Assembly (NCBI GenBank): GCA_016182565.1
Contig: JACPGI010000004.1
Location: 110,223-174,222, forward strand
Direction of reading: 5' to 3'
Source: a candidate division WWE3 bacterium
GTDB lineage: Bacteria > Patescibacteriota > WWE3 > UBA101185 > UBA10185
DNA: 64,000 nt
A model generated the notes under the pieces. It saw only the letters and a list, made by a program, of their open reading frames with translations, had not been told where the DNA came from and did no database searches. Numbering within the stretch: position 1 is the stretch's first letter; every line of letters begins with the position of its first letter. This document shows, in pieces, positions 36,114 to 57,380 of this stretch. Both the position numbers and the translations under genes were made by a program.

Positions 36114-36659
36114 TTAGTTCAGTTGCTCCTTTTCTAAAAGCTCATATAAATCATTACAGGTAGAGTCTATCTTTTTTATAAATGTTTTAATGATCTTTGG
36201 ACTTAATATTTCCTTAGTAAATGTTATGAAACCAGATTCTTTTGAAGGTTTAATCTTTACTCTCACATAATCGCCTTTCTCGAGAGTATTCCAGTTTGCA
36301 TGTGCAACCTTGTTTCTAAATTCAACTAGTTCGATCATTGCTTGTTTTATTTTTTTCAATAAATCTTTATTTTTAGACTCCATCGCTGACATATATTGAT
36401 ATAAAAGATCTGAAAATATAGTAATCTTTTCCACCATTTCCATATTACGAATAAGCACATAGCCAATGTCATGAGATCCATCCCCAATTAATTCGGCTAA
36501 GGAAGTATTCAGATCGTGTTCAAACTGACTAAAGGATATAAAGAAATTACCGATTAGAGGAGCAATAAGTCTTCTTCTTTTTTCAATATAGTCACTATCG
36601 TAATAATCGTACTGTTCCAAATTTTCAATTTTAATAGGATTTAGTGATTTATAGGGCAT
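36114..36659 (-). CDS. hypothetical protein with Rx4H 'RNKVAH' motif (HEPN-like; possible Abi-type RNase)
   Basis: 181 aa; 'VEFRNKVAHANW' fits HEPN Rx4-6H motif in a predicted alpha-helical context. Confidence 0.4.
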   Translation of the reverse strand: MPYKSLNPIKIENLEQYDYYDSDYIEKRRRLIAPLIGNFFISFSQFEHDLNTSLAELIGDGSHDIGYVLIRNMEMVEKITIFSDLLYQYMSAMESKNKDLLKKIKQAMIELVEFRNKVAHANWNTLEKGDYVRVKIKPSKESGFITFTKEILSPKIIKTFIKKIDSTCNDLYELLEKEQLN

Positions 36660-36732
36660 CTGGGTCTATGTTTTTTAAGTATACTTTGGCTGGGCACTTG
36701 GGAACTTGTTGGAACTTTACTACTAGCTAAAA

Positions 36733-37323
36733 CTATCTGATTTTCTGCAAATCCTTTCCATATTTCTGAAATGCAAACTTTTCATAGGTTTTATCTTTCG
36801 GCAACTCTTCAAAATATCTTGTTAAACGAATCTTGGTCATGAAATCTTCTGATGACCTAATGCTTTTAGCTAATTCAGTTCCTACTAATTTGAACAAGTA
36901 ATTAAACGGGACATAGGTAGGTACTAGTATGTTCAGTAAATATCTGACTAATAAAAATAGTATTAATAAAGGAATAGATTTAAGAAAAAGGTATGCAATC
37001 AATACCCCAGTAGATACAGCATTGATATAAACTAACACACCAATATTCGGGGAGGTCATTAGTAATTGCAATAAATGCACTGGTTGAGCAAATTCCGATA
37101 ATTTTGCTATTCTAGCAACGGTTAAAGTAATTCTTTGATATTCAAAAGTTGTATTAAAAATTGAAATATCAAAATAGCTTAAGCAAATCATAACCCAAAG
37201 GGGTATTTCTTTTATATTGGGAAAAAGTACAGTAATTAGGAGTGCTAAACCAAAAGTAAGTATTGTAGCTATATTTGCGAGTATCATATCACTGATTTTA
37301 CTACCTTGAACCAATTCTAGCAC
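36733..37323 (-). CDS. 5-TM membrane protein (hypothetical)
   Basis: hydrophobic helices through residue ~130 then charged C-terminal tail. Confidence 0.45.
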   Translation of the reverse strand: MLELVQGSKISDMILANIATILTFGLALLITVLFPNIKEIPLWVMICLSYFDISIFNTTFEYQRITLTVARIAKLSEFAQPVHLLQLLMTSPNIGVLVYINAVSTGVLIAYLFLKSIPLLILFLLVRYLLNILVPTYVPFNYLFKLVGTELAKSIRSSEDFMTKIRLTRYFEELPKDKTYEKFAFQKYGKDLQKIR

Positions 37324-37326
37324 TAT

Positions 37327-37929
37327 TTAGTACAATTTTTTGTACGTTATTTCTTCTGTGCTAAGCATAAGAAAGATTGCACAGAATGAGTTTTTTGGAA
37401 TAATAATGCTTTTTTTAATGTAGTCGTAATTCACGAATATATTACCTATATCTGTACTATTAGGTTTATTTTTATCATAACTATTCGTAGGTACTACAAT
37501 CAAACTGACTTCTCCTGACCTATATCCTCCCGAAACCTTGTTGATATAAGTAACTAGGTCTTCATTAAATGTACCAAGGTTATGTATAGGAAATTTTTTA
37601 ACCTGAAACGCAAAAGCAGTTGGGTCATGTTTATCAATGGTACCTTTTACTAATCCAAAATCTACAGGTGTATTCTCATTTAGCATTTTTCTAATAATAT
37701 CGTTGGTTTCTTCAGGAGTTGGTTTAAAGTTTCTACTAAGGTTTCTTATATCATTCTTTATCTCAAAAGCTATACAAAAGGGAGAATTATAGCTCTTTTC
37801 TAAATTCCTTTTCATGTGTATGCTTACGGCGAATTCATAATCCTTGGAATTTATACCCTTTCCGTATTTTTCAAGAGCATTTATAAGGGCTTCTTCTGTT
37901 ACTAAAAAAACATTATTTTTATCGTACAT
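37327..37929 (-). CDS. hypothetical protein (first gene of a 3-gene minus-strand cluster)
   Basis: 200-aa ORF, 3-nt gap to downstream membrane protein gene. Confidence 0.45.
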   Translation of the reverse strand: MYDKNNVFLVTEEALINALEKYGKGINSKDYEFAVSIHMKRNLEKSYNSPFCIAFEIKNDIRNLSRNFKPTPEETNDIIRKMLNENTPVDFGLVKGTIDKHDPTAFAFQVKKFPIHNLGTFNEDLVTYINKVSGGYRSGEVSLIVVPTNSYDKNKPNSTDIGNIFVNYDYIKKSIIIPKNSFCAIFLMLSTEEITYKKLY

Positions 37930-38005
37930 AGTAGTATTAACTAATTTAAATAAGTTTACGCTTCATAATGTTTACTGGCTGAAAGTTGGGAACTTGTTTA
38001 TATAT

Positions 38006-38467
38006 TTATAAGTTTGCAATCTTCTTGGTAAACTCAGCTGGATACTTAACTTTAAGTAATTCCGAAGCTTCATTAGGAGTAAACCATGAAAACTCTACAT
38101 GTTCCTCACTTAGCATTATATTGGGGTTTTTCTTAAGTTCGCACAGATATATACCCAGAATTAACCCAATAGTATCAGTTCCTTGGGGTATTCGGATATT
38201 GGATACAACCATATCAAGTTTGGTAAATGATTTAATCTCTGTAATACCTGTTTCCTCTTCAACCTCTCTCTTTAATGTTTCTTCTATGGTACAACCTTTT
38301 TGCACTCTTCCGCCTGGTATATCCCAATAAGCTCCAAGTGAGTGATTCGATAACTTTTCTAAGTTAACCTTAAGTAAAAGTATTTCACCTTTAGAATTTC
38401 TTATTAAAGCTTTTATACCTAAGTGATACGTTTCTTCTTTCATAGTTTTAAAATGCATGAACCTCAA
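38006..38467 (-). CDS. Nudix hydrolase
   Basis: Nudix box 'GGRVQKGCTIEETLKREVEEETGI'. Confidence 0.8.
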   Translation of the reverse strand: MRFMHFKTMKEETYHLGIKALIRNSKGEILLLKVNLEKLSNHSLGAYWDIPGGRVQKGCTIEETLKREVEEETGITEIKSFTKLDMVVSNIRIPQGTDTIGLILGIYLCELKKNPNIMLSEEHVEFSWFTPNEASELLKVKYPAEFTKKIANL

Positions 38468-38996
38468 TTACATGGTCTAAACGTGGAGCTATTTTTGTTC
38501 TCATAAAATCTTTATACAATTGTTCCTCGAACTCCTTAATATAATCTATCTTAAAACCAGCTTTTTCTAAATGTTCCTTTATAGTTTCAGGTGTGTGGAA
38601 ATATCTCACTCCAGTACCAATTATATTCTTGTTTTCGTCTCTGTAGAAAACTTTTGTTAATCTAGTAATAGGGTCATATTCAATATCAGGTTTATTTCTA
38701 TCAACATTTTTCTCTGACCTAACAACAATAAATAAATGACCTGTTGATTTTAAAGATTTTTTAAAATTATTTAAAACATTATCCAATTCTTGAAAACTTA
38801 GATAATGAAGAACTAATCTAGCATAAATATAATCAAAGTAATTAGCTGGATAGGGATACTCTTTTGTTAAATCTTCTATTTTAGTCTCTATTTGTTTATC
38901 TAAACCTAATTCTTTGATGTTTGCGATTGAGAAATCAAGACCTTCTGTATCTATTGTTGTAGCGATTATTTTAGAATTTAAATTAGCTTTCGCCAT
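38448..38996 (-). CDS. SAM-dependent methyltransferase-like protein (N-terminal motif I region very short or truncated)
   Basis: 'KSTGHLFIVVRSE' methyltransferase motif; only ~20 in-frame codons available upstream before a stop. Confidence 0.5.
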   Translation of the reverse strand: MAKANLNSKIIATTIDTEGLDFSIANIKELGLDKQIETKIEDLTKEYPYPANYFDYIYARLVLHYLSFQELDNVLNNFKKSLKSTGHLFIVVRSEKNVDRNKPDIEYDPITRLTKVFYRDENKNIIGTGVRYFHTPETIKEHLEKAGFKIDYIKEFEEQLYKDFMRTKIAPRLDHVIEVHAF

Positions 38997-39236
38997 TCTA
39001 ATCTCTGCAAAACCACCTGAACTATACCAGGACTTAATATATTTAAATCTGTATCTCTAACAAAGAAATTCCATGTTCCTCACTTATTGAAGGTTTTGCA
39101 CCTAACTGTTTTAATTGTTCTTCGATAGTAACCACCATACGCTAATAATATCATAGAAACTTCCCCAACACATAAAAGCAAACAACCACAGCGTAAGCTG
39201 TGATAAAATCCAACCAGTGTTGGGGAGTTTCGGATT

Positions 39237-39980
39237 ATGCAAATCGCTGATATAACAATCATAAGCAGGGGTGAACCACCTGAGCTTATAGAACAACCTA
39301 ATAAAAGCACCATTAGCCTACTTTCAATATTGTTAAATAGTAGGTATTTTAATGATTTTGTAACTTCATTTATTGATAAATATGCTATAGAGCAGGAAGA
39401 TATTAAACCTAACCTTAGCAAAGTTATAAATGACCTAGAAAACTGCTCTAAATACCCTGAAATTAGCACTGTAGTAGATGTTTTGGGGTTATCTAGTGAC
39501 TTTGTACCTGATTTTTACTTATTAACCAAATATAGAGCATTTAGAGATATTGGTAACTACTTTTCTATAAACTATAGAAGCACAGTATGGCATTTAAAGA
39601 TTGATTCAGAGGAAGCGATAAAAGAAAAAAGAGAGATAAGTGGGATTATATTCAAAAACAAAGTATCCAAAAGGGAAATGCTTAATTGGGTAAATGAAAA
39701 TTGGGAATGGGTCGAACCAAACATGGCGGAATTACCTGTAAATCCCTTTGTGATTACTGATTTTAAGGACATAGAACTCGCCAGCGAGATATACGACCTA
39801 AATAAACAAGGTATGAAACCTACACAAATACTTAAAGCTTTAAGTACTAAATACCAAGATAATCAGCAAATATACGATAATCTATCGCTTGAACTTGTTA
39901 AAAACAAACTTAAACGCTTTAGAAATCTACTAAACAAAAGAGAACCTTGGTTTCAGAAAACTGAAATTATATACGAATAG
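39237..39980 (+). CDS. module-associated hypothetical protein X1 (paralog of 45481-46272)
   Basis: N-terminus 'MQIADITIISRGEPPELIEQP' vs 'MGIDEIKILKNLNPIELTPEK'; 'REMLNWVNENWEWVEP' vs 'KQMVLDWVGKHWEETIE'. Confidence 0.65.
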   Translation: MQIADITIISRGEPPELIEQPNKSTISLLSILLNSRYFNDFVTSFIDKYAIEQEDIKPNLSKVINDLENCSKYPEISTVVDVLGLSSDFVPDFYLLTKYRAFRDIGNYFSINYRSTVWHLKIDSEEAIKEKREISGIIFKNKVSKREMLNWVNENWEWVEPNMAELPVNPFVITDFKDIELASEIYDLNKQGMKPTQILKALSTKYQDNQQIYDNLSLELVKNKLKRFRNLLNKREPWFQKTEIIYE

Positions 39981-40043
39981 GGCCACTAAAAAATATTTTA
40001 CTGATACCTAAGCTTTACTGTTTTAGCTTTATTCTCCCTCGTA

Positions 40044-40223
40044 ATGAGGGATTTAATCAAACCCACAACTGAAGATATTGAGCAAATAAAAACCTTTTTT
40101 AAAGAAAGATATGGGGTTTTATTAACTGATGAAGAAGCAAAAGAAGCGTTTATCTCACTTTATTACTTAGGAAAAGCGCTATACAGATATAACAACTTAT
40201 CAGAGAGGATTTTAAATGGTTGA
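40044..40223 (+). CDS. conserved small module protein (59 aa; paralog of 46300-46482); not in supplied ORF track
   Basis: hand translation 'MRDLIKPTTEDIEQIKTFFKERYGVLLTDEEAKEAFISLYYLGKALYRY...' aligns with 'IPTKEELQHLKCFLEAKFGVAFTNSEVLESYYSLTHLGKAIYLF'. Confidence 0.6.
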   Translation: MRDLIKPTTEDIEQIKTFFKERYGVLLTDEEAKEAFISLYYLGKALYRYNNLSERILNG

Positions 40224-41316
40224 AATCCCCTCTTTTTTTGACTTATCTACTCCAATTGACCCCACCGACGAGTTGCGGAAGCAACCGTCGGATACTCCCA
40301 AGGAAGTATTTAATCCAGAAGTAAAAAGTACAATTGAGTATAAGGGTTTTGCTAGAGATACTGAAATAGTCGGAAATCCTGCTTTATTATATTTAACTAA
40401 TTATAGAACATTTCAACAGAAGCTTGATAGCAACCTAAAACAATATATTAAGGAAACAAAATTAGAAATGAGGGGTAAATTATTTGAGTTAAGAAACGCA
40501 CCTCCTCACTTTTGTGGTTTATATAAATCTGCGAAACTCAGTGTTTCTGGAAATAAACTTTTACAAGTAATATTCTCAAAAATACCTTGTAATTCTTGGT
40601 GTTGTCCAGTTTGTAGTATAAGAAAAGCAATAAGATTAAAATACAGGTTAAGAGAGATTATTTTACTAAATGATTTAGAGTATTTTATTACCTTTACTCT
40701 AAATCCCTCTAAAATTCCAAGTGTGTATAAGAATGATACGCACAAGTATATTACAAAACTTTTCAACCATTTTTTAACTGTACTACGAAGAAAAAAGTAT
40801 AAATATTTTCATGAAAATAGTGGTAGGTATTTTTACTTTGATTTAACCAAAGCAAAAGATAAGCTTAAATATGTTTGGGTTATTGAGTTTCAAAAGAAAA
40901 CGCATAACGCACATATGCATATTCTAACCAACCAATATTTACCAGCAGTTATATTACGCAAAATATGGCAAGATGTTGGTGGTGGTACTCAAATGCGTTT
41001 GGAAAAGGTCAAATCTAAAAAAGGTATAAGTAACTACATAACTGACTATTTGGTTAAGGGTATAAAAGATACACCTACAAACTTGAAATTGGGTTATGGT
41101 TTCAAGTATTTTGAGCGTAGATATAGTGTTAGTAACTCATGCACTAAACCTGAAAAGAAAATGAAAGAGTTGTTTAAATTACTACCAAACGAGTTAAAAG
41201 AAAAAGAATTAATGAAGCAAAATTTGGGTTGGATTGTAAAAGAGTTATATAATGCGGATAACGATTATTTCAAAGTTGTATTTGATAGTAATTCTCCTGC
41301 ACCACAAAACTTATGA
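40216..41316 (+). CDS. HUH-superfamily rolling-circle replication initiator (Rep), copy 1
   Basis: motif I 'YFITFTL', motif II 'HNAHMHIL' (HUH), motif III 'YITDYLVK' (catalytic Tyr). Confidence 0.75.
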   Translation: MVEIPSFFDLSTPIDPTDELRKQPSDTPKEVFNPEVKSTIEYKGFARDTEIVGNPALLYLTNYRTFQQKLDSNLKQYIKETKLEMRGKLFELRNAPPHFCGLYKSAKLSVSGNKLLQVIFSKIPCNSWCCPVCSIRKAIRLKYRLREIILLNDLEYFITFTLNPSKIPSVYKNDTHKYITKLFNHFLTVLRRKKYKYFHENSGRYFYFDLTKAKDKLKYVWVIEFQKKTHNAHMHILTNQYLPAVILRKIWQDVGGGTQMRLEKVKSKKGISNYITDYLVKGIKDTPTNLKLGYGFKYFERRYSVSNSCTKPEKKMKELFKLLPNELKEKELMKQNLGWIVKELYNADNDYFKVVFDSNSPAPQNL

Positions 41317-42833
41317 ATACTGATTTAAAATATATTATTTATTGTAGAAAATCCTCGGAAGAAGAAAACCGACAAGCACAATCTCTTGATACTCAAAAAA
41401 CTACACTCTTAAAGTATGCACATGATAATAAACTTGATTTTGTTTGTATTTATGAAGAATCTAAAAGTGCTAAAGATGATAATAACCGAATGTTTTTTGA
41501 TGATATGCTTTCTAAACTTAAATCTGGAGAAGCAAATGCAATATTAGTACAGCATTTGGATAGGTTAAGCAGAAATAGAATTGATACAGGTGAATTAATT
41601 AAGTTATTCCAAGAGGGTAAATTAAAAGAGATTAGAACCCCATATAAAGCTAATAATACGATTTATGATTTGTTTAGTATGGATTACGAGTTTATTAACG
41701 CTATTCATTATTCTGCAAGGTTATCAATTCGAGTTAAAGAAGGTATTGATACAAAATTAAGAAAAGGTGAATTTCCTGGTCCTCCTAAACTTGGTTATAT
41801 AACTGTTAATAAAAAACATACTCCTGACCCAGAAAGAACACCTTTTATCAAAGAAATATTTGATTTATATACTGGTAGCAGAGTTTCTATTGAGATTATT
41901 GCTGATACGCTTTTTGATAAAGGTTTTAGAACTCTAAGCGGTAAAAAAGTATATACCTCTGCAATAGCACGAATACTTCAAGATACCTTTTATACAGGTA
42001 AGTTTTTGTATAAAGGAACTGTTTATCAAGGTATTCATAAACCAATAATATCAGAACAGCAGTTTAAACTTGCTAATGAAATAAGGGTAGGTAAAAGCAA
42101 ACCTCGACCTAAAACTGATTTGGATTTTTTGTATAGAGGTTTTTTAAAATGCAATTATTGTGGTTGTGCTTTAACTCCAACTCTTAAAAAGGGTAAATAT
42201 GTATATTACTTCTGTACCAATGGTAAAAACATGTGTGAACAGCACAAAGATTATCTTGGTGAAGGTGATTTAACCCCTAAAGTAACCAGTATTTTCCAAA
42301 ACTTCATAATTGATAAAGATATGGCGACCAAATCCCTTGAGGTTTACAAGAAACAAACCATACAAGCATACGAAGATAAAGTACAGGTTAAAAAGTCACT
42401 AGAAACCCATGTAGAAGCTTTAAACGATAAGTTAGATAAGCTATTAGATACTTACCTAGAAGAAAAAGTAGATAGCAGTACATACAGCAAGAAACAAACA
42501 AAGATAAAACAGGAAATTAAGCAAATTGAAGATAGAATATCAAAACTTAATAAATCACCAAAAACCACTCTGGAACTTTTGGATAAGTTTAAACAGCAAT
42601 GTTTTTCTCTTGGTGAAGTGTATGAACATGGAGATAAAGAGGTTAAGAAAGATTTGTTAAATTCCGCACTCTGGAACTTTTCTATGCTTAATGGAGAAAT
42701 AGCGTCAGTACAATATAAACTACCTTATAAATACATGAATGAAGCTTCTAAAAGTGGTGATTTTTCAATTTGGCTGGGGAACAGGGATTCGAACCCCAAT
42801 ACCTGGGACCAAAACCCAGAGTCCTACCGTTAG
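41313..42833 (+). CDS. large serine recombinase (resolvase catalytic domain + recombinase domain + zinc ribbon + coiled coil), copy 1
   Basis: 'YIIYCRKSS' catalytic Ser region, 'LDRLSRN', Cys cluster 'CNYCGC...YYFCTNGKNMCEQH'; C-terminus reads through antisense of tRNA-Gln. Confidence 0.85.
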   Translation: MNTDLKYIIYCRKSSEEENRQAQSLDTQKTTLLKYAHDNKLDFVCIYEESKSAKDDNNRMFFDDMLSKLKSGEANAILVQHLDRLSRNRIDTGELIKLFQEGKLKEIRTPYKANNTIYDLFSMDYEFINAIHYSARLSIRVKEGIDTKLRKGEFPGPPKLGYITVNKKHTPDPERTPFIKEIFDLYTGSRVSIEIIADTLFDKGFRTLSGKKVYTSAIARILQDTFYTGKFLYKGTVYQGIHKPIISEQQFKLANEIRVGKSKPRPKTDLDFLYRGFLKCNYCGCALTPTLKKGKYVYYFCTNGKNMCEQHKDYLGEGDLTPKVTSIFQNFIIDKDMATKSLEVYKKQTIQAYEDKVQVKKSLETHVEALNDKLDKLLDTYLEEKVDSSTYSKKQTKIKQEIKQIEDRISKLNKSPKTTLELLDKFKQQCFSLGEVYEHGDKEVKKDLLNSALWNFSMLNGEIASVQYKLPYKYMNEASKSGDFSIWLGNRDSNPNTWDQNPESYR

Positions 42834-42844
42834 ACGATTCCCCA
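42771..42844 (-). tRNA. tRNA-Gln (anticodon UUG), CCA encoded
   Basis: hand-folded cloverleaf: acceptor UGGGGAA/UUCCCCA, anticodon loop UUUUGGU, T-loop UUCGAAU, discriminator G; resembles bacterial tRNA-Gln. Confidence 0.8.
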
Positions 42845-42996: not shown

Positions 42997-43557
42997 TTAG
43001 GGTTGGATTGGAGTTATTTTGAGGCTAGTGCTTTCAACTTCACACTTTGCATCAATCGAAATTGCGACCTTAATCACAATCGGCCAACGCTCCCACATTA
43101 AAGTGGTCTCAAAGTATTGTTGACCATCAGGAAACGTTTTCAGCACAGGCCACCGGGTAACCTCAATAGTATCTTGAGACTTGTACCCGTCTCCTACATG
43201 GTACAAACTTACCCATGCTTTAGGTGCACTTTTACCGCACCATTCGTTGGCATCCTGGTAGTTTCCACCGATATACCACCCCAGAGCATTTTTTGTAGCT
43301 GAATATTGCCTGTGAACCCCATCTGTATCAGAGACCTCAACAAATGGAAGTTCAACTGTACCTTCAACTGCACCAATTATTCCGACTGCATAGGGTATTG
43401 TATTCGGAGTTGGGCTATTGAATGCCTCAGCATAATACCTGTATCTGTCCTCAAGTGTTTGCTGGTCCGGCATCGACAACATCGTGGCAATACATCCCGC
43501 CGCTACTAAAATAAGTACCAACACAGTACCAATCCCTTTCAATACATTTTTATTCAT
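42997..43557 (-). CDS. lipoprotein (hypothetical), GC-elevated
   Basis: lipobox-like 'LVAAGC'; ~43% GC vs ~32% background. Confidence 0.55.
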   Translation of the reverse strand: MNKNVLKGIGTVLVLILVAAGCIATMLSMPDQQTLEDRYRYYAEAFNSPTPNTIPYAVGIIGAVEGTVELPFVEVSDTDGVHRQYSATKNALGWYIGGNYQDANEWCGKSAPKAWVSLYHVGDGYKSQDTIEVTRWPVLKTFPDGQQYFETTLMWERWPIVIKVAISIDAKCEVESTSLKITPIQP

Positions 43558-43758
43558 TGTTCCTCTCCCTTGTTACATCATATTTTGATTTCCGGCGAAT
43601 TATATCTTATAGTATGCCAAATTACAATTATTATAGGTCATTAATAAAATTGTTTAATTTCGGGAAAATTTCTAAACAGGATATTTAATTAATAAAAGTT
43701 GGAGTGAGTATTTGGTGGAGCATTTGGGACTATGTTGGAACTAATTCCCTAGTACTCG

Positions 43759-44259
43759 CTACCCATAAAGTTTAATCATTCTATCAATATTTTCACTTAA
43801 GGTATCTAATTCAACCTCTTTTCTTCTAGTATCAACATTGCTAATATCCCATAAGTTAATAGGTTCATATTTTCCCTCACTTGTTTTAGTGAATTGAGTA
43901 CCATAAATCTGTTGTTTTCCTTGTGCTAACAATACTCTATCTTTTAAGTATGCATAGTCACGTTTATTTACGTCCTCCATATTCTTTTCCATTAATTCTA
44001 AATATTTTTCTTGTAAATTTATATCCGGAGAATGTTGGACTAATTTCCAAGATTGGAATGAACTTTTCTTTCCAACCTTACTTATTGTAGGTAAACCAAA
44101 ATCCTTAAGTACCTCTGTAATAAACTTGGTGCTTTTCTCGTCAATTTCCTTCATTTGTTCAAGAAATTTCTCGTCCTTAGAGTTAATGTAATTAGTTCTA
44201 ATCTTAGTATCTTCTTCAAAGAGGGATTGTAATGTTGAAACTAGGTAATTTATTTTCAT
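43759..44259 (-). CDS. hypothetical protein
   Basis: 166-aa charged helical ORF. Confidence 0.45.
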   Translation of the reverse strand: MKINYLVSTLQSLFEEDTKIRTNYINSKDEKFLEQMKEIDEKSTKFITEVLKDFGLPTISKVGKKSSFQSWKLVQHSPDINLQEKYLELMEKNMEDVNKRDYAYLKDRVLLAQGKQQIYGTQFTKTSEGKYEPINLWDISNVDTRRKEVELDTLSENIDRMIKLYG

Positions 44260-44287
44260 ACAATAAAGTGGAACTCTCGCAAAAAAT

Positions 44288-44722
44288 TTACAAACTCAAA
44301 CGAGAACATACTTCAAGAAATTTACTTTTAATATCCTCAAATGCTAAATGTTTAAGCACTTCCTCTTTTGATAACCACTTCAAATCAACAATTTTTGCTT
44401 GTATTTTTGGGGAAGCAGCTAAATTAAAATTTCCAGCGTAGTAATAGGTTATCCCTTTCTTTCCTGCTCTATCAGGTTTTTCATTACCATAGATAAATTC
44501 ATTAGTAATACCCGTATCCGATAGTTTGTAGTCAGTATTACTTAATCCTAATTCCTCAAAAATTTCTCGTTGCAAACCTGCTTCAATAGTACTATCGTTA
44601 TCTTCTATTCTTCCCCCAACAAAAGTCCAAAATGAATTTTTATGTTGTAACAGCAAATATTCCACCCTTTTATCAGGGTTAATTTTATAGATTATTACAA
44701 CTGCACCTTTTATTAAATCCAT
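44288..44722 (-). CDS. Nudix hydrolase
   Basis: Nudix box 'GGRIEDNDSTIEAGLQREIFEELGL'. Confidence 0.75.
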   Translation of the reverse strand: MDLIKGAVVIIYKINPDKRVEYLLLQHKNSFWTFVGGRIEDNDSTIEAGLQREIFEELGLSNTDYKLSDTGITNEFIYGNEKPDRAGKKGITYYYAGNFNLAASPKIQAKIVDLKWLSKEEVLKHLAFEDIKSKFLEVCSRLSL

Positions 44723-44762
44723 GGTGAGATTATAGCACCAACAAGGTTTTTTCGGATATTAC

Positions 44763-45480
44763 GTATCGGTAGTGGTCACCTCCCACCACTTAAATGGAAT
44801 GACGTCCTCCCCGGATAGCACTATGTTTGTCCGGGGTTTCCTTTGCTCCGCTTCTCATGAGAAGTCGTCAGTAACATCGTAACCTAAATCAGAATCATTT
44901 TGCTTACGTATGTATTTGCGTATCTGATCCTCATTGAGCCCTATTGTAGAGACAAAGTACCCCACACTCCACACACCACTATCACCGTACATCTTATCTA
45001 TAAATTTAAACTTAGTTCTAAGGGTGGAACTTGATCTTGATTTCAACTCACGAACTACGTCGGAGATACAATCAGTCGGAGGAAACTCTATTCTCATGTG
45101 TATATGGTCATTGTCTGTATTGAGTTGAAATATGAACCAGGTGGGGTGTGTGCGCAGTGTTTTGTAAAAGCTTTTGACTAGTTCCAAGCGAACATAGGGC
45201 TTTAGTATCTTCCTACCATACTTTGTTCTCCAAACAATGTGATACTGAGTTTGGTATGTGCTATGACTTAGTTGACGAATCCTCATGATGACAGAATAGC
45301 ACTTCGTGCTATTCCCATTCGTCCATGAACTGCGTTCGCAATTCCTCGACCCTTGCTCACTTGTTCATGGTTTGCTGGTATGGATTAGAAAAAGCACACA
45401 CGTAGTGTGTGCTAAAATCCTCCCACTGTGGTGGGAAGTGATTGGATTTCCACCGAAGCATGGGGTACACTCCAACCACT
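44763..45480 (-). mobile_element. IS200/IS605-family insertion sequence (TnpA only, IS200 group), ~0.72 kb; boundaries approximate
   Basis: Y1 HUH transposase gene flanked by GC-rich subterminal palindromes ('agtggtcacctcccaccact', 'cccactgtggtggg'); inserted 3' of a TTAC; GC well above host. Confidence 0.7.
44855..45286 (-). CDS. tnpA: IS200-type Y1 transposase TnpA
   Basis: 'HIVWRTKYGRKIL', HUH 'HIHM', catalytic Tyr region 'GYFVSTIG'. Confidence 0.85.
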   Translation of the reverse strand: MRIRQLSHSTYQTQYHIVWRTKYGRKILKPYVRLELVKSFYKTLRTHPTWFIFQLNTDNDHIHMRIEFPPTDCISDVVRELKSRSSSTLRTKFKFIDKMYGDSGVWSVGYFVSTIGLNEDQIRKYIRKQNDSDLGYDVTDDFS

Positions 45481-46272
45481 ATGGGGATAGATGAAATAAA
45501 AATTCTTAAAAACTTAAATCCTATTGAACTAACACCTGAAAAAGAAATATCAGAACAAACTTGGATTGCACTAGGTAAGGTTCTTAACGATGATAGAACA
45601 TATGTTTTTATTGAAGATTTTAGAAAATCCTATGGTTTACCTAAAAATGGTTTGGATATAACAAAATTTGTTGGTAAAAACTTCAAAGAATTAGGTTTAG
45701 ATAACTATTTAGGAATGGGTTTATCCGTTATTTCCGCTACTCTTTCAGAACGAACAGGATTAGGTAATGCTTTTAACGACCAATTGTTACTACTCCTGTA
45801 TTTTAATGCTTTCTTAGATTGTAACCATTACAATAAATTACCTAGTTTTGAAATTAATTTTGTTGCAGGTAAAGAACAAATATCAAATGCTTGTTGGAAA
45901 TATCCTCATGAAATAGGTGCTATTTTAATACCTGTTTTTGCTAACAAACAAATGGTGCTTGATTGGGTTGGAAAACATTGGGAAGAAACCATTGAAAAAC
46001 AACTGGATAGCAAAATCTACGATAATCCTTTTGCGGAAACTACTCTTCAGTGGAGTAAAATAGCAACCGAAATAATTTACTACAGAGATAAGGAAAAGAA
46101 ACAATTTAAAGAAATATCTACAATACTTTTTGATAAATATGGCAAAGAATATGCTGTTGTTGCTGATGAAGATTGGGCTCGTGCTATATATCACCAATAT
46201 AAAGAACATTTAAAGTTGTGGGAACAATCAAAGCGAAAGCAAAAATCAGCGAAAACTCTTACTCAAAAATAA
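45481..46272 (+). CDS. module-associated hypothetical protein X2 (paralog of 39237-39980); track start 45442 is a TTG inside the IS end
   Basis: homology of N-terminus beginning at ATG 45481 with X1. Confidence 0.6.
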   Translation: MGIDEIKILKNLNPIELTPEKEISEQTWIALGKVLNDDRTYVFIEDFRKSYGLPKNGLDITKFVGKNFKELGLDNYLGMGLSVISATLSERTGLGNAFNDQLLLLLYFNAFLDCNHYNKLPSFEINFVAGKEQISNACWKYPHEIGAILIPVFANKQMVLDWVGKHWEETIEKQLDSKIYDNPFAETTLQWSKIATEIIYYRDKEKKQFKEISTILFDKYGKEYAVVADEDWARAIYHQYKEHLKLWEQSKRKQKSAKTLTQK

Positions 46273-46299
46273 CCTCCTAAAATCTACGATTTCCAGTAA

Positions 46300-46482
46300 A
46301 TGCTGGAAATCAAAATACCCACAAAAGAAGAATTACAACATTTAAAGTGCTTTTTAGAAGCAAAATTCGGTGTTGCTTTCACCAATAGTGAAGTTTTGGA
46401 AAGTTATTACTCCCTAACACACCTTGGTAAAGCAATATATCTGTTTTGTAAACAACAGGAGGTTAAAAATGAAACCTCTTGA
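46300..46482 (+). CDS. conserved small module protein (60 aa), copy 2
   Basis: paralog of 40044-40223. Confidence 0.6.
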   Translation: MLEIKIPTKEELQHLKCFLEAKFGVAFTNSEVLESYYSLTHLGKAIYLFCKQQEVKNETS

Positions 46483-47422
46483 AACACAAGAAGAAATTGT
46501 TAAATATTTTGGTTCACCACTTGAAGAACCTGAACTTCACACCGAGTTATATTACAAACCAAAAATATCCCAAACTGATATTTTAATAAAAGAAATCCTC
46601 GCCAACAAGCATAGCGACGAAAGTCGCATGCTTTCCCCCTTTACTCTACTAGATAGTACCGTCGTAATTCCTCCAGTTATTGATAAGTTTAAAATTGCTT
46701 ATTACCAAACAACAACGGAATATGGGAATTATGTTGATATTTATATTCATGAAAAACCCATAATTAAAGCAAAAAACCTAAAATCCCGAAATGTACGAGG
46801 AGGTAGGTACAAGGAAAATGAGGAAAAACCAGATAGGGGTAACGAATATCGCAGAAGAAACTCAATCAAAGCATTAAACATGATAAAACAACTAACACTT
46901 CAAAATTTCACTAAAGAAAATGTGAAACTGCTAACCCTTACTTTTGGAGATTGTGCTTTTGATATCAATAATCCAAGGATTTGTGACCCCTTATTTAGTA
47001 TTTTTATGTGTAAATTACGAAAGTTATTTCCTGATTTAAAGTATCTAGGTGTTTTAGAGTTCCAAAAACGAGGTGCTGTTCATTACCATGTTTTGTGTGA
47101 TTTACCCTATATCAAAAAAGAAGAAATAGCAGAACTTTGGGGATATGGTTTTATTGATATTAGAAAACCTGATTATGTTATTGGAACTTACTTGTATAAA
47201 TATCTATCAAAGGATTTAAACGACGAAAAATTAAAAGGTGTTAGGGTATATTTTCACTCTAAAAACCTTGAAAAACCCGTTAATAAAACTGGAGTACCTG
47301 CATTTGATGTAATTTCCAGATTTCAAAATTCAGAAATACACTTTACTAACCAGTATACAAATAAATATAATGGGGGTACTGTAAAATACTTACAGTTTAA
47401 AGTTTCTCCTACCCAAACATAA
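46469..47422 (+). CDS. HUH-superfamily rolling-circle replication initiator (Rep), copy 2
   Basis: motif I 'LLTLTFGD', motif II 'VHYHVLCD', motif III 'YLYKYLSKD'; ATG 46469 preceded by 'aggagg' SD (track gives upstream start 46424). Confidence 0.75.
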   Translation: MKPLETQEEIVKYFGSPLEEPELHTELYYKPKISQTDILIKEILANKHSDESRMLSPFTLLDSTVVIPPVIDKFKIAYYQTTTEYGNYVDIYIHEKPIIKAKNLKSRNVRGGRYKENEEKPDRGNEYRRRNSIKALNMIKQLTLQNFTKENVKLLTLTFGDCAFDINNPRICDPLFSIFMCKLRKLFPDLKYLGVLEFQKRGAVHYHVLCDLPYIKKEEIAELWGYGFIDIRKPDYVIGTYLYKYLSKDLNDEKLKGVRVYFHSKNLEKPVNKTGVPAFDVISRFQNSEIHFTNQYTNKYNGGTVKYLQFKVSPTQT

Positions 47423-47429
47423 AAGATAT

Positions 47430-48890
47430 ATGAATAATTGCTTTATTTATTGCAGAAAATCTACAGATTGTGCTGATAAACAAGAACAATCCCTTGAAAC
47501 CCAAGAGAGAATTTGCTTGGAAACTGCAAAGCGATTTAATCTTAGTGTTGTTGATACCATTCTTGAAGCAAAATCTGCTAAAGATGCTGGAAACCGACCC
47601 AAATTTGATAACTTAATTTATCGCATTCGTAATAAAGAAGCAGATATTATTATTACTTGGGATATTGATAGATTAGCAAGAAACTTAACAGAAGCAGGTT
47701 TATTACAACAACTTTATGAAACTGGATTAATAACAAAAATAATCACTGAACATGATATTTATGCTTCTGATAGGGATTTTATGAATATTGGTCATGAGTT
47801 TGTTGATGCTTCTAATTATTCCCGAAAACTTCGTTCTAAAGTTAAAGATGGTACTGATACCAAACTTAAAAGAGGTGAAATTCCGGGTTCTTCAAAAATT
47901 GGTTACTACATAGTTGATAAGAAAATGAAACCCGACCCAGATAGAGCACCTTTTGTAAAACTTGCTTTTGAAATGTATACAGACGGTAAACACTTAAGAG
48001 AAATAACCAAAACCTTATATGAAATGGGTTTTAGAACCAAAAAGGGTTACAAGGTTTATCTAAACACTATAAACAAAATGCTAAAGCGAATTGATTACAC
48101 TGGTACATTTGAGTACAACAAACAACTATATCAAGGAAGTTACGAACCACTTGTTTCAATGGAATTATTTGACAAGGTTCAAAAACTGATTGTTAAAAAC
48201 AACATTCCAAAATCCCAGAAACACTACTTTCTTTACCGAGGTTTTATTAAATGTGGGCATTGTGGTTGCATGCACACTGCTACAACTAAAAAAGGAAAAT
48301 ATATTTATTACTACTGCACTAATTCCAAAAGAATTTGTAAACAGCACCAAAAATATATTGAGGAACAGGATATGCATGATTTATATAGCAATAAACTTTC
48401 AGAACTCCCAATAGATACCGAGATACTAAATCAATCTTACGAGTTATATGCTAAAAATTACCTACAGCAGTATAAAGAGGTGGAAAATCAGAAAACCATT
48501 GTTAAAAAGCAACTGGTGAGTGTAGAAACCAGTATAAACAGGTTAGTTGATATTTATATTAGGGGAGAAATACAACAGGAGGTTTATTCTCGAAAATACA
48601 AGCAACTGGTTTTAGAAAAAGAAACCCTCCAAAACACACTTATCAAACTGGAAACTCAAAAACCTGAAGAAACCTTGGAACTTATTAAAAAATTCAAAGA
48701 TTATTGTTGTACCTTGCAAAACACCTACTCCAAGGGAAACAATGGGGTGAAAGAAGAAATCTTAAAAGCAGTGTGTTGGAACTTTTCAATCAATAATGGA
48801 AAAATCGCTTCAATACAATACAAAAAACCATTTGATATGATTGCAAAACTACCTAAAAATGCTGATTTTGTTCAATGGTGGGCGGTATAG
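47430..48890 (+). CDS. large serine recombinase, copy 2
   Basis: 'FIYCRKST', 'IDRLARN', zinc ribbon 'CGHCGC...YYYCTNSKRICKQH'; terminal 'QWWAV*' codons overlap antisense of tRNA-Val CCA. Confidence 0.85.
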   Translation: MNNCFIYCRKSTDCADKQEQSLETQERICLETAKRFNLSVVDTILEAKSAKDAGNRPKFDNLIYRIRNKEADIIITWDIDRLARNLTEAGLLQQLYETGLITKIITEHDIYASDRDFMNIGHEFVDASNYSRKLRSKVKDGTDTKLKRGEIPGSSKIGYYIVDKKMKPDPDRAPFVKLAFEMYTDGKHLREITKTLYEMGFRTKKGYKVYLNTINKMLKRIDYTGTFEYNKQLYQGSYEPLVSMELFDKVQKLIVKNNIPKSQKHYFLYRGFIKCGHCGCMHTATTKKGKYIYYYCTNSKRICKQHQKYIEEQDMHDLYSNKLSELPIDTEILNQSYELYAKNYLQQYKEVENQKTIVKKQLVSVETSINRLVDIYIRGEIQQEVYSRKYKQLVLEKETLQNTLIKLETQKPEETLELIKKFKDYCCTLQNTYSKGNNGVKEEILKAVCWNFSINNGKIASIQYKKPFDMIAKLPKNADFVQWWAV

Positions 48891-48952
48891 GGATCGAACC
48901 TATGACCTTTCGGATGTAAACCGAATGCTCTAACCAGCTGAGCTAACCGCCC
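48876..48952 (-). tRNA. tRNA-Val (anticodon UAC), CCA encoded
   Basis: acceptor GGGCGGU/ACCGCCC, D-arm GCUCAGCUGGUUAGAGC, anticodon loop UUUACAU, T-arm AUAGGUUCGAUCCCUAU. Confidence 0.85.
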
Positions 48953-55035: not shown

Positions 55036-55111
55036 TGGTGGGAAGAGTGGGAATCGGACCCACATAGCCGGTTTTTCAGACCGGTGCCTTGACCAACTTG
55101 GCTATCTTCCC
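55036..55111 (-). tRNA. tRNA-Phe (anticodon GAA)
   Basis: acceptor GGGAAGA/UCUUCCC, anticodon loop CUGAAAA, T-arm GUGGGUCCGAUUCCCAC, CCA encoded. Confidence 0.8.
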
Positions 55112-55127
55112 GCTTTGCATAATTAAA

Positions 55128-55203
55128 TGGAGCGACGGACCGGACTCGAACCGGCGACCTCCTCCTTGGCAAGGAGGCGTTCTACCAACTGAACTACCGT
55201 CGC
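55128..55203 (-). tRNA. tRNA-Gly (anticodon GCC)
   Basis: acceptor GCGACGG/CCGUCGC, anticodon loop UUGCCAA, discriminator U, CCA encoded. Confidence 0.85.
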
Positions 55204-55239
55204 ATAAACAAAAACTATTTTAACATGTAAAAAATTATT

Positions 55240-55326
55240 TGGTGGGCGAGACAGGACTTGAACCTGCACAGGTTTTACCCCACAACGACCTCAACGTTGC
55301 GCGTATGCCAATTCCGCCACTCGCCC
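55240..55326 (-). tRNA. tRNA-Leu (anticodon GAG), type II long variable arm
   Basis: UGGCGGAAUUGG D-region typical of Leu, anticodon loop UUGAGGU, 87 nt. Confidence 0.8.
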
Positions 55327-55388
55327 ATGCAAACATGTGATATTTTATCATGTTTTCTTAAATTCAGAATCTATATTTACAATATGGT

Positions 55389-55475
55389 TGGTGCCAGAGA
55401 TGGGATTTGAACCCATACGCCTTTTACAGCACTGCCTTCTGAAGACAGCGAGTCTGCCAATTTCTCCACTCTGGC
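55389..55475 (-). tRNA. tRNA-Leu (anticodon CAG), type II
   Basis: acceptor GCCAGAG/CUCUGGC, anticodon loop UUCAGAA, long variable arm, 87 nt. Confidence 0.8.
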
Positions 55476-55511
55476 ATAAGTTTTTAGTATTAAGCGGCTA
55501 GAAATAAAATT

Positions 55512-55586
55512 TGGTGAGGGCGGTGGGATTCGAACCCACGACACACGGATTAAGAGTCCGATGCTCTACCACTGAGCTACGCCCCC
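55512..55586 (-). tRNA. tRNA-Lys (anticodon CUU)
   Basis: D-arm GCUCAGUGGUAGAGC, anticodon loop CUCUUAA, T-arm GUGGGUUCGAAUCCCAC. Confidence 0.75.
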
Positions 55587-57304: not shown

Positions 57305-57380
57305 TGGTGCCCCCAGAGGGATTCGAACCCCCGACCCCTTGTTCCGAAGACAAGTGCTCTATCCGCTGAGCTATGGAGGC
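57305..57380 (-). tRNA. tRNA-Arg (anticodon UCG)
   Basis: acceptor GCCUCCA/UGGGGGC, D-arm GCUCAGCGGAUAGAGC, anticodon loop CUUCGGA. Confidence 0.8.

Follow-up and report, generated by a model that had tools for sequence, protein, structure and literature searches.

The locus considered here raises the question of whether three tightly packed genes next to a mobile element represent a single defence system. The genes are found in a 64,000 nt stretch of DNA (the window) from a candidate division WWE3 bacterium. All three are on the minus strand, and their limits are exactly those given in the initial annotation, i.e., positions 36114–36659 (181 aa), 36733–37323 (196 aa, termed TM196) and 37327–37929 (200 aa, termed U200). 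The gap between the 181 aa gene and TM196 is 73 nt, and that between TM196 and U200 is 3 nt. In Pfam, NCBIfam, PHROG and PADLOC, no model is matched above its threshold by any of the three proteins (0/3), which were earlier described as having no recognisable housekeeping function, and all three represent accessory genes. A PDB sequence search with profiles of all three families gave nothing meaningful. The initial annotation viewed the trio as a unit flanking a mobile island, with a HEPN effector paired with a membrane protein.

The mobile island (island 1) can be delimited at both ends. At one end is its integration target, the tRNA-Gln(UUG) gene at positions 42771–42844 on the minus strand (found by ARAGORN; Rfam score 53.7 bits). 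The large serine recombinase gene of the island (41313–42833, plus strand; Pfam Resolvase, Recombinase and Zn_ribbon_recom) runs into this tRNA gene, with 63 nt at its end antisense to the tRNA. The distal terminus is an att-derived arm at positions 36685–36716 on the minus strand, which ends in CCCAGCCAAA. The same 10 nt are present at the 3' end of tRNA-Gln (42769–42778). The att core common to both ends is only 10 nt, and the crossover point is located approximately. The terminal segment and the distal end of a second island (43711–43742) share 78% identity, and this 32 nt motif is found twice in the window vs. 0 times in 100 shuffles. It is also found directly after the U200 homologues in two other Patescibacteria elements (L008 and L009), whose recombinases likewise overlap a tRNA-Gln(ttg) gene. 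A degenerate tRNA fragment at positions 36685–36716 was also considered, but it would not account for the whole segment, since the sequence upstream of CCCAGCCAAA has its match in the distal arms of three other elements and not in tRNA-Gln.

Comparison with related WWE3 loci (L004–L006), where the HEPN protein is 82% identical to the 181 aa protein, reveals the empty site. In these loci a tRNA-Gln gene, to which that of the window is 87% identical, is 137–317 nt upstream of the HEPN gene, and there is no DNA corresponding to positions 36695–42770. Homology with the relatives starts at ...CCAAAGTATAC (36685 downward), and the homology with the distal end of island 2 ends at this same point. Island 1 has defined ends and a recombinase gene beside a tRNA, and relatives have the empty site; these are the properties of a tRNA-targeting serine-recombinase element. 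These comparisons establish, at the level of sequence, an integrative element of approximately 6.08 kb at about positions 36695–42770, situated at the 3' end of tRNA-Gln(UUG). Its boundary falls in the 73 nt gap that separates TM196 from the HEPN-like gene. On the same comparative grounds, U200 and TM196 arrived with the mobile element, which landed beside a resident HEPN-type gene; the pre-insertion state had the 181 aa gene directly downstream of tRNA-Gln, as is still the case in related WWE3. The predicted attB consists of tRNA-Gln joined to GTATACTTAAAA..., and in the predicted circular attP, 36716...36695 would be joined to 42770.... The trio is not a unit beside the island: the integrated element contains two of its genes, whereas the HEPN-like gene (36114–36659) is outside.

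The backbone of island 1 consists of the large serine recombinase, a rolling-circle replication initiator-like protein (Rep; REP_ORF2-G2P, positions 40216–41316; Pfam E=2.4e-8, PHROG 3419 E=2.9e-12), a 247 aa gene (39237–39980) and a small 59 aa ORF (40044–40223) that is also called in a near-identical contig (L010), all on the plus strand. The cargo operon has the order methyltransferase-like gene, Nudix gene, U200, TM196. The Nudix hydrolase gene is at positions 38006–38467 on the minus strand (Pfam NUDIX E=2.3e-19). The class I SAM-methyltransferase-like gene (38448–38996, minus strand) has Pfam Methyltransf_23 and Methyltransf_11 matches that begin at profile positions 46 and 19, respectively, and an in-frame stop at 39057–39059, near this gene, was read directly from the sequence. 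The encoded protein apparently has no N-terminal motif I region, and the gene looks truncated at its N-terminal end. The Nudix and methyltransferase genes had been taken as a defence context for the trio, but both are cargo of the same element that carries U200 and TM196.

Island 2 is a second, homologous integrated element at positions 43711–48952, which extends from the distal motif (43711–43742) to a tRNA-Val gene (48876–48952). Its order is distal motif, cargo (DUF6624, Nudix and IS200 TnpA), a 276 aa gene, Rep, serine recombinase and tRNA-Val. The backbones of the two islands are homologous. The serine recombinases are 37% identical, the 247 aa gene of island 1 is homologous to the 276 aa gene of island 2 (26% identity, E=1e-7), and a Nudix gene is cargo in both. 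A class of integrative mobilizable elements that carry both a serine recombinase and an RCR Rep-type protein and are integrated at tRNA genes has been reviewed (PMC5704250). The islands resemble this class in having a large serine recombinase, an RCR Rep-like protein, variable cargo and a tRNA 3'-end target. They differ in that the host is a CPR bacterium, in that the recombinase ORF extends into the tRNA on the opposite strand, and in having a short att core (6–10 nt) with a conserved element-side arm; no transfer functions were recognised in them.

The proposal that the trio forms one defence or abortive-infection system, with the membrane protein and the 200 aa protein sensing for or regulating a HEPN RNase effector, draws on the common strand, the gaps of 3 and 73 nt, the lack of a predicted terminator between the genes, the accessory nature of all three genes and a plausible HEPN assignment. 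It has the island terminus between TM196 and the HEPN-like gene against it, as well as the finding that in relatives it is tRNA-Gln, and not TM196, that is upstream of the HEPN gene. In addition, no PADLOC system model was matched. TM196 and U200 had no matches, and those of the 181 aa protein were weak and limited to Csm6-HEPN. A census of the three families by BLAST and profile HMMs points the same way. They are found together only in the window and in contig L010 (SRR12113420), which is from the same strain; they do not co-occur at any of the other loci, which number 64 for the HEPN family, 9 for U200 and 4 for TM196. The one-system explanation is already contradicted by these comparative data and is considered highly improbable, and the pairing of a HEPN protein with a membrane protein is not supported. 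An intrinsic terminator was sought between TM196 and the HEPN-like gene and none was found, therefore read-through co-transcription may still take place.

The two cargo genes can be considered separately. U200 is predicted to have the alpha/beta core fold of restriction endonuclease-like, PD-(D/E)xK proteins. Residues D90, Q109 and K111 are invariant (D90 ... Q109-V-K111), with Q in place of the D/E of the (D/E)xK motif. The nearest known proteins are PD-(D/E)xK nucleases, i.e., CdiA-CT toxins (4g6v, 4g6u and 5j4a) and type II restriction endonucleases, and U200 is probably a nuclease. TM196 was described in the initial annotation as a protein with five transmembrane segments. It is a multi-pass membrane protein, but with approximately four hydrophobic spans (about residues 13–37, 40–58, 84–114 and 116–140) plus one amphipathic segment. 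This conserved segment, FEYQRIT, is part of the motif FEYQRIT...RIAKL, and there is a charged C-terminal tail. The 196 aa ORF has a GTG start, but the true start is likely to be the ATG at 37287, which is preferred because of the homologues.

An independent two-gene cargo module of U200 and TM196 was also considered, which might represent a nuclease toxin with a membrane immunity protein or anchor, or an exclusion or anti-defence pair. This is unlikely. A TM196 homologue is present at 0/9 of the other U200 loci and a U200 homologue at 0/4 of the other TM196 loci. U200 recurs as cargo of such elements, and outside this strain it is never beside a TM196 homologue. No conserved partner of U200 was found; its neighbours vary and consist of a 282 aa protein, an SNase-domain protein, other unrelated genes, or none. 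Homologues of TM196 are in other mobile element-like contigs (L011 and L076–L078) with different neighbours. Scans of IMG/VR for U200 and for TM196 revealed no relatives. The distribution of homologues identifies U200 and TM196 as independent cargo genes; on mobile elements elsewhere, either gene is present in the absence of the other.

The remaining gene encodes the 181 aa protein. The segment EFRNKVAHANW is present as reported and corresponds to residues 113–123. HEPN domains are up-down bundles of four helices. They are defined by a conserved Rx4-6H motif with a polar N, D or H after the R, placed where helix 3 ends or the loop to helix 4 begins (Anantharaman et al. 2013, PMC3710099). The 181 aa protein has R115-N116-x3-H120, i.e., Rx4-6H with a polar residue right after the R. 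By itself the motif is weak evidence. In shuffles of the protein, a bare R-x4-6-H occurs in 26% and RNxxxH in 0.7%. What gives the motif weight is its conservation: among 91 homologues, H120 is invariant, and conservation of R115, N116 and W123 is 90% or higher; the same RNxxxH conservation is seen in a 15-sequence alignment. Structure prediction gave an AF2 model with a pLDDT of 95.2 and four long helices (residues 22–58, 75–92, 98–120 and 154–177), in which the third helix ends, on its C-terminal side, with RNxxxH (115–120). Helices 3 and 4 are separated by a three-stranded beta insert (residues 122–151), which is conserved. The conserved acidic position E47 belongs to the first long helix, unlike the helix 2 position described for many HEPN families.

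Profile searches matched HEPN models, all of them below threshold. The best curated profile is PF18737, with 16.7 bits vs. a cutoff of 26.8 (E=0.0086), and this match covers the motif-bearing C-terminal half of the protein. The sub-threshold matches are nearly all to HEPN families, namely HEPN_MAE_28990, Swt1, DUF4145, Csm6 (E=0.004 for the PADLOC Csm6 HEPN model), RiboL-PSP, Cthe_2314 and Abi_2. Other members of the family have sub-threshold matches to PF18735, PF18730, PF07751, PF18737 and PF18731. A Foldseek search of the model against the PDB gave nothing significant. Two homologues are fusion proteins: P0055 (568 aa) has HEPN_Toprim_N at 1–200, SLFN_AlbA_2 at 229–359 and the family domain at 395–556, and P0050 has Mrr_N together with the family domain. 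A helical bundle that merely mimics the HEPN motif and acts as a non-catalytic adaptor or regulator, and not as an RNase or defence gene, would have to account for the conservation of H120, R115 and N116, including a canonical polar residue after the R, across 91 diverse sequences, for the motif at the canonical structural position, for sub-threshold matches to seven different HEPN models and to few other models, and for the fusions with HEPN/Toprim-NTD1 plus Schlafen and with Mrr_N. Such a mimic is improbable. On account of the motif conservation, the motif position in the model, the sub-threshold HEPN matches and the HEPN-type fusions, there is strong support for the 181 aa protein as a stand-alone HEPN superfamily member, closest to the MAE_18760/MAE_28990-like clade.

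The relation to this clade is one of both likeness and difference. MAE_18760/MAE_28990 (PF18737) is the best Pfam match, although below the gathering threshold, and RNxxxH is in common. Fusion partners of MAE_18760 include HEPN/Toprim-NTD1 and Schlafen (PMC3710099, Table 1), and in P0055 these same two domains are N-terminal to the family domain. Most members of the present family, unlike MAE_18760/MAE_28990, are solo proteins of approximately 180 aa. MAE_18760/MAE_28990-like families are found in operons with a ParB nuclease and a DNA methylase, or with ParA/Soj (PMC3710099), but such operons are absent at the window locus and are not among the frequent neighbour families. The family also differs from the HEPN-MNT type II toxin-antitoxin systems (SO_3166/SO_3165, PDB 5yep and 7ae2). 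No MNT/nucleotidyltransferase or other conserved neighbour is present among 57 loci, a nucleotidyltransferase is absent from the 25 most frequent neighbour families, and the 181 aa protein has the additional three-stranded beta insert. In Pfam scans the family did not match the AbiJ, ApeA or pEK499_p136 models. UniRef gives one Vibrionaceae member the name "pEK499-p136 HEPN domain-containing protein", a label that Pfam did not reproduce.

The genomic context of the family is of a defence type, and in this respect the suggestion of a defence function stands for the 181 aa protein, but not for the trio as a system. Family members are often closely downstream of type I restriction-modification (R-M) genes (L056 and L022), a type III-like system (L038), GmrSD-HNH (L016 and L018), a C5 methylase (L048) and Mrr (L007). 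This placement is similar to that of R-M-linked solo HEPN genes such as the AbiJ solos, ApeA/BMEI1217 and pEK499_p136-like genes. PrrC/RloC represent the functional paradigm for R-M-linked HEPN genes; the 181 aa protein, unlike this paradigm, has no ABC-ATPase or N-terminal sensor domain. A second-line defensive role has been proposed for HEPN genes that are embedded in type I and other R-M operons or attached to them (PMC3710099). Among 128 neighbours, the Pfam families seen most often are those of R-M and integrases. Recognisable R-M or restriction neighbours are present at only about 8 of 56 family loci, and in the window no R-M gene adjoins the HEPN-like gene. A conserved partner was sought at 57 loci and none was found. 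The gaps flanking the HEPN-like gene in the window have no ORF of 50 aa or longer. As a small antitoxin the only candidate was a 23 aa ORF in the downstream gap, which was rejected. The family is spread over Patescibacteria, Omnitrophota and Gammaproteobacteria, including Vibrio (a cluster of 194 aa proteins) and Pseudomonas (P. putida WP_274105989.1), and tblastn of family members against plasmid and phage collections gave no match.

By analogy the 181 aa protein is likely to be a solo defence RNase. It would act like other Rx4-6H HEPN proteins, as a dimer in which paired R115, N116 and H120 residues form a metal-independent RNase site. The beta insert at 122–151 is a candidate regulatory or substrate-binding element. 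The protein would need no partner gene, and none is conserved. By comparison with restriction-linked HEPN genes, it may represent a latent toxin or a second-line anti-phage effector. A more far-reaching proposal is offered tentatively. The family comprises approximately 210 clusters at 50% identity (matches at E<=1e-3), and with its FRNxxAHANW motif and three-stranded beta insert it might constitute a distinct HEPN family that has no curated model, whose members are partner-less abortive-infection RNases that dock onto diverse restriction systems. With the element inserted, the gene directly follows a cargo operon that has the same orientation and no terminator, an arrangement that could alter expression of the toxin.

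Taken together, the apparent three-gene cluster is quite probably a juxtaposition made by site-specific integration, with the 181 aa protein a stand-alone, HEPN-type putative RNase. Tight same-strand packing beside a mobile element can come from integration and not from function, and therefore the locus does not belong among three-gene defence candidates. In CPR bacteria, the mobile elements of which are poorly covered by catalogues, small serine-recombinase/Rep elements recur at tRNA 3' ends, and the conserved terminal motif makes the boundaries of such elements easy to call. The resident gene belongs to a well-delimited solo HEPN family that is still annotated as "hypothetical" almost everywhere. 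Its members in cultivable hosts (Vibrio, Pseudomonas and Shewanella) allow a direct test of the predicted R-M-associated RNase function.

Three ORFs lie on the minus strand exactly where the initial annotation placed them: a HEPN-like gene encoding 181 aa (positions 36114–36659), TM196, encoding a 196 aa membrane protein with a GTG start (36733–37323), and U200, encoding 200 aa with a predicted PD-(D/E)xK-nuclease-like fold (37327–37929). They are separated by 73 nt and 3 nt, respectively. Homologues indicate that the ATG at 37287 is the real start of TM196. The annotated segment EFRNKVAHANW is present at residues 113–123 of the 181 aa protein, and NCBI has an entry for the exact protein, labeled hypothetical, from a candidate division WWE3 bacterium (CPR/Patescibacteria lineage). 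Scans with Pfam, NCBIfam, PHROGs and PADLOC place none of the three proteins above threshold.

The 73-nt gap between TM196 and the HEPN-like gene contains AGTTCCAACAAGTTCCCAAGTGCCCAGCCAAA (36716–36685, minus strand), whose last 10 nt are those of the 3' end of tRNA-Gln (42778–42769). This tRNA-Gln(UUG) gene, detected by ARAGORN and Rfam, is at 42771–42844 on the minus strand, and a large serine recombinase gene (41313–42833) overlaps it with its final 63 nt. A homologue of the 181 aa protein with 82% identity is present on six short metagenomic contigs. In three of these (L004–L006) a tRNA-Gln 87% identical to that of the window is 137–317 nt directly upstream of the homologue in the same orientation, and there is no counterpart of window positions 36695–42770. 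Homology between the window and these island-free relatives starts exactly at …CCAAAGTATAC[T/G]TAAAA… and runs on into the HEPN gene. Downstream of their tRNA-Gln there are one or two tandem units of about 125–157 nt (L004 557–702; L005 and L006 84–409), each ending with 22 nt that copy the tRNA 3' end almost perfectly (CGAGTCCCTGACCCC[C/T]AGCCAAA). These units resemble scars left by earlier integrations at this hot spot, or miniature remnants of them.

The 32-nt terminal motif has one further copy in the window, at 43742–43711 (none in 100 shuffles), with 78% identity to 36685–36716. At this copy a second, similarly built element, island 2 (43711–48952), has its distal end, and the presence of the same motif at the end of a homologous element confirms the island 1 boundary. 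Island 2 has a tRNA-Val (48876–48952, minus strand), an overlapping serine recombinase gene (47430–48890), a Rep gene (46424–47422), a 276 aa backbone gene and a minus-strand cargo of IS200-like TnpA, Nudix and DUF6624 genes. Identities between the two backbones are 37% (recombinase), 32% (Rep) and 26% (247 and 276 aa genes); the two Nudix genes are 32% identical, and the islands can also be aligned at their tRNA-proximal ends. The shared att core is 10 nt in island 1 and 6 nt in island 2; a short shared core suits serine-recombinase att sites. In two other Patescibacteria contigs, L008 and L009, a homologous recombinase overlaps tRNA-Gln(ttg) and the terminal motif (AAAGTTCCnACAnAGTCC…CCAGC) is just downstream of a U200 homologue. 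The recombinase ORF enters its target tRNA antisense in all four elements, by 63 nt (42771–42833), 15 nt (48876–48890) and 61 nt each in L008 (3993–4053) and L009 (530–590), so that the codons of its C-terminal residues span the att junction and excision would alter these residues. The interval from tRNA-Gln to the distal end of island 2 contains a gene for a 186 aa protein (42997–43557) that carries a hydrophobic anchor at its N-terminus and matches no family. Elsewhere in the window, five minus-strand tRNA genes (Phe, Gly, Leu, Leu, Lys; 55036–55586) form a cluster, and a tRNA-Arg gene stands apart (57305–57380).

The gap motif, the island-free relatives, the second element and the L008 and L009 termini demonstrate the limits of the element. 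By these sequence comparisons island 1 is placed at about 36695–42770 (about 6.08 kb); its cargo ends with the U200 and TM196 genes, and the HEPN-like gene lies outside the element. The proposed three-gene or membrane-paired defense system is thus split by the island terminus. It also finds no parallel at other loci: the nine other U200 loci have no TM196 or HEPN181 (181 aa family) homologue, the four other TM196 loci have no U200 or HEPN181 homologue, and 57 genome loci with HEPN181 relatives show neither U200 nor TM196 by BLAST or profile HMM. Outside the window the families co-occur only in L010, which is from the same strain and 99% identical to the window; this shows that they are independent of one another.

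The cargo genes have separate associations. U200 has 20 homologues (43–54% identity), and a homologue of the island recombinase is present at five of the nine other recovered loci; its neighbors differ, i.e., a 282 aa protein, an SNase-domain protein, other unrelated genes, or none. Residues D90, Q109 and K111 are invariant, but activity is uncertain as D…QxK is a variant of the catalytic motif. TM196 has seven homologues besides the same-strain copy, and one of the four recovered loci is beside TraG/TraC/PrgI-like conjugation genes. Its features are a set of about four hydrophobic spans, an FEYQRIT…RIAK segment that is invariant and, at the C-terminus, a charged tail containing YFEE.P; the database scans and a PDB sequence search with the family profile detected no relatives of known function. 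In the region 38448–39059, a methyltransferase-like cargo ORF (38448–38996; PADLOC mad2 match, E = 1.6e-12) matches Methyltransf_23 from about profile position 46 and has no clear motif I, and an in-frame stop (39057–39059) comes ahead of a stretch, YSSGGF, that is degenerate. Truncation of the gene or a non-canonical start may account for this.

The HEPN proposal holds for the 181 aa protein and not for a three-gene unit. Shuffles of this protein yield a bare R-x4-6-H in 26% and RNxxxH in 0.7% of cases, and comparative support for the motif is therefore needed. An exhaustive phmmer search gave 210 representative clusters, of which 99 reach E ≤ 1e-10; most are stand-alone proteins of 170–195 aa. 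In a 91-sequence alignment the consensus is FRNxxAHANW; H120 is invariant, and conservation is 90% or higher for R115, N116, W123, E47, K78 and G37. The AlphaFold2 model from this alignment (pLDDT 95.2) displays long helices at 22–58, 75–92, 98–120 and 154–177, with a three-stranded sheet (122–151) inserted between the last two. The third helix has RNxxxH at its C-terminal end, so the modeled position matches that of the HEPN motif, at the end of helix 3 (PMC3710099). Profile evidence is convergent yet below threshold: HEPN_MAE_28990 (E = 0.0086), Swt1-HEPN, DUF4145 and Csm6-HEPN for the window protein, and RiboL-PSP, Cthe_2314, Abi_2, MAE_28990 and Swt1 HEPN models for family members. One fused homologue (P0050) joins Mrr_N to the HEPN181 domain. 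Another (P0055) joins it to HEPN/Toprim-NTD1 and Schlafen, both of which are among the listed fusion partners of the MAE_18760 HEPN family (PMC3710099). One member of the P0185/P0190 protein cluster (Vibrionaceae, 194 aa) is named "pEK499-p136 HEPN domain-containing protein" in UniRef; in NCBI all members are hypothetical, and a Pfam scan of P0190 gives no HEPN match at E ≤ 0.1. On the conserved motif, model, convergent profiles and fused homologues, the 181 aa protein very probably belongs to the HEPN superfamily, nearest the MAE_18760/28990 clade, and is formally in no curated family.

The family has no conserved neighbor at the 57 loci, and no relatives were found in plasmid and phage collections. 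At loci where a family gene closely adjoins a co-directional array, this array is usually a restriction system, e.g., type I HsdS-HsdR with a 1-nt gap (L056), HsdR-M-S (L022), N6/N4 methylase, ResIII helicase and DUF3800 (L038), GmrSD-HNH (L016, L018) and a C5 methylase (L048). In L007 (3–359) a gene for a 75% identical relative of the window protein follows an Mrr-type restriction endonuclease gene (Mrr_cat, E = 1.6e-22) after 17 nt. The commonest Pfam families among 128 neighboring genes are Methylase_S, GmrSD_N, rve integrase, ResIII and phage integrase, and several loci have a tRNA just upstream. The same placement is described for many R-M-linked HEPN clades (PMC3710099). In the window the gene has no R-M neighbor and is flanked by the tRNA-Gln att site and a PAS histidine kinase. 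DUF4145, which models a HEPN domain (Anantharaman et al. 2013, PMC3710099), adjoins a HEPN181 member in L013 (944–1606) and U200 homologues in L074 (5393–6073), L069 and L075; this points to clustering of nuclease/toxin genes in these variable regions.

By analogy with established HEPN biology, the 181 aa protein would dimerize to form a composite, metal-independent RNase site of R115, N116 and H120, and its role would be that of a latent toxin or of a second-line effector against phage. The conserved beta insert may serve to gate the RNase or to bind substrate. The stretch from TM196 to the HEPN-like gene shows no detected terminator, and read-through from the cargo operon is therefore possible. 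The 181 aa protein possibly represents a new family within a known protein type, beside an element of ordinary integrative type in an unusual host.
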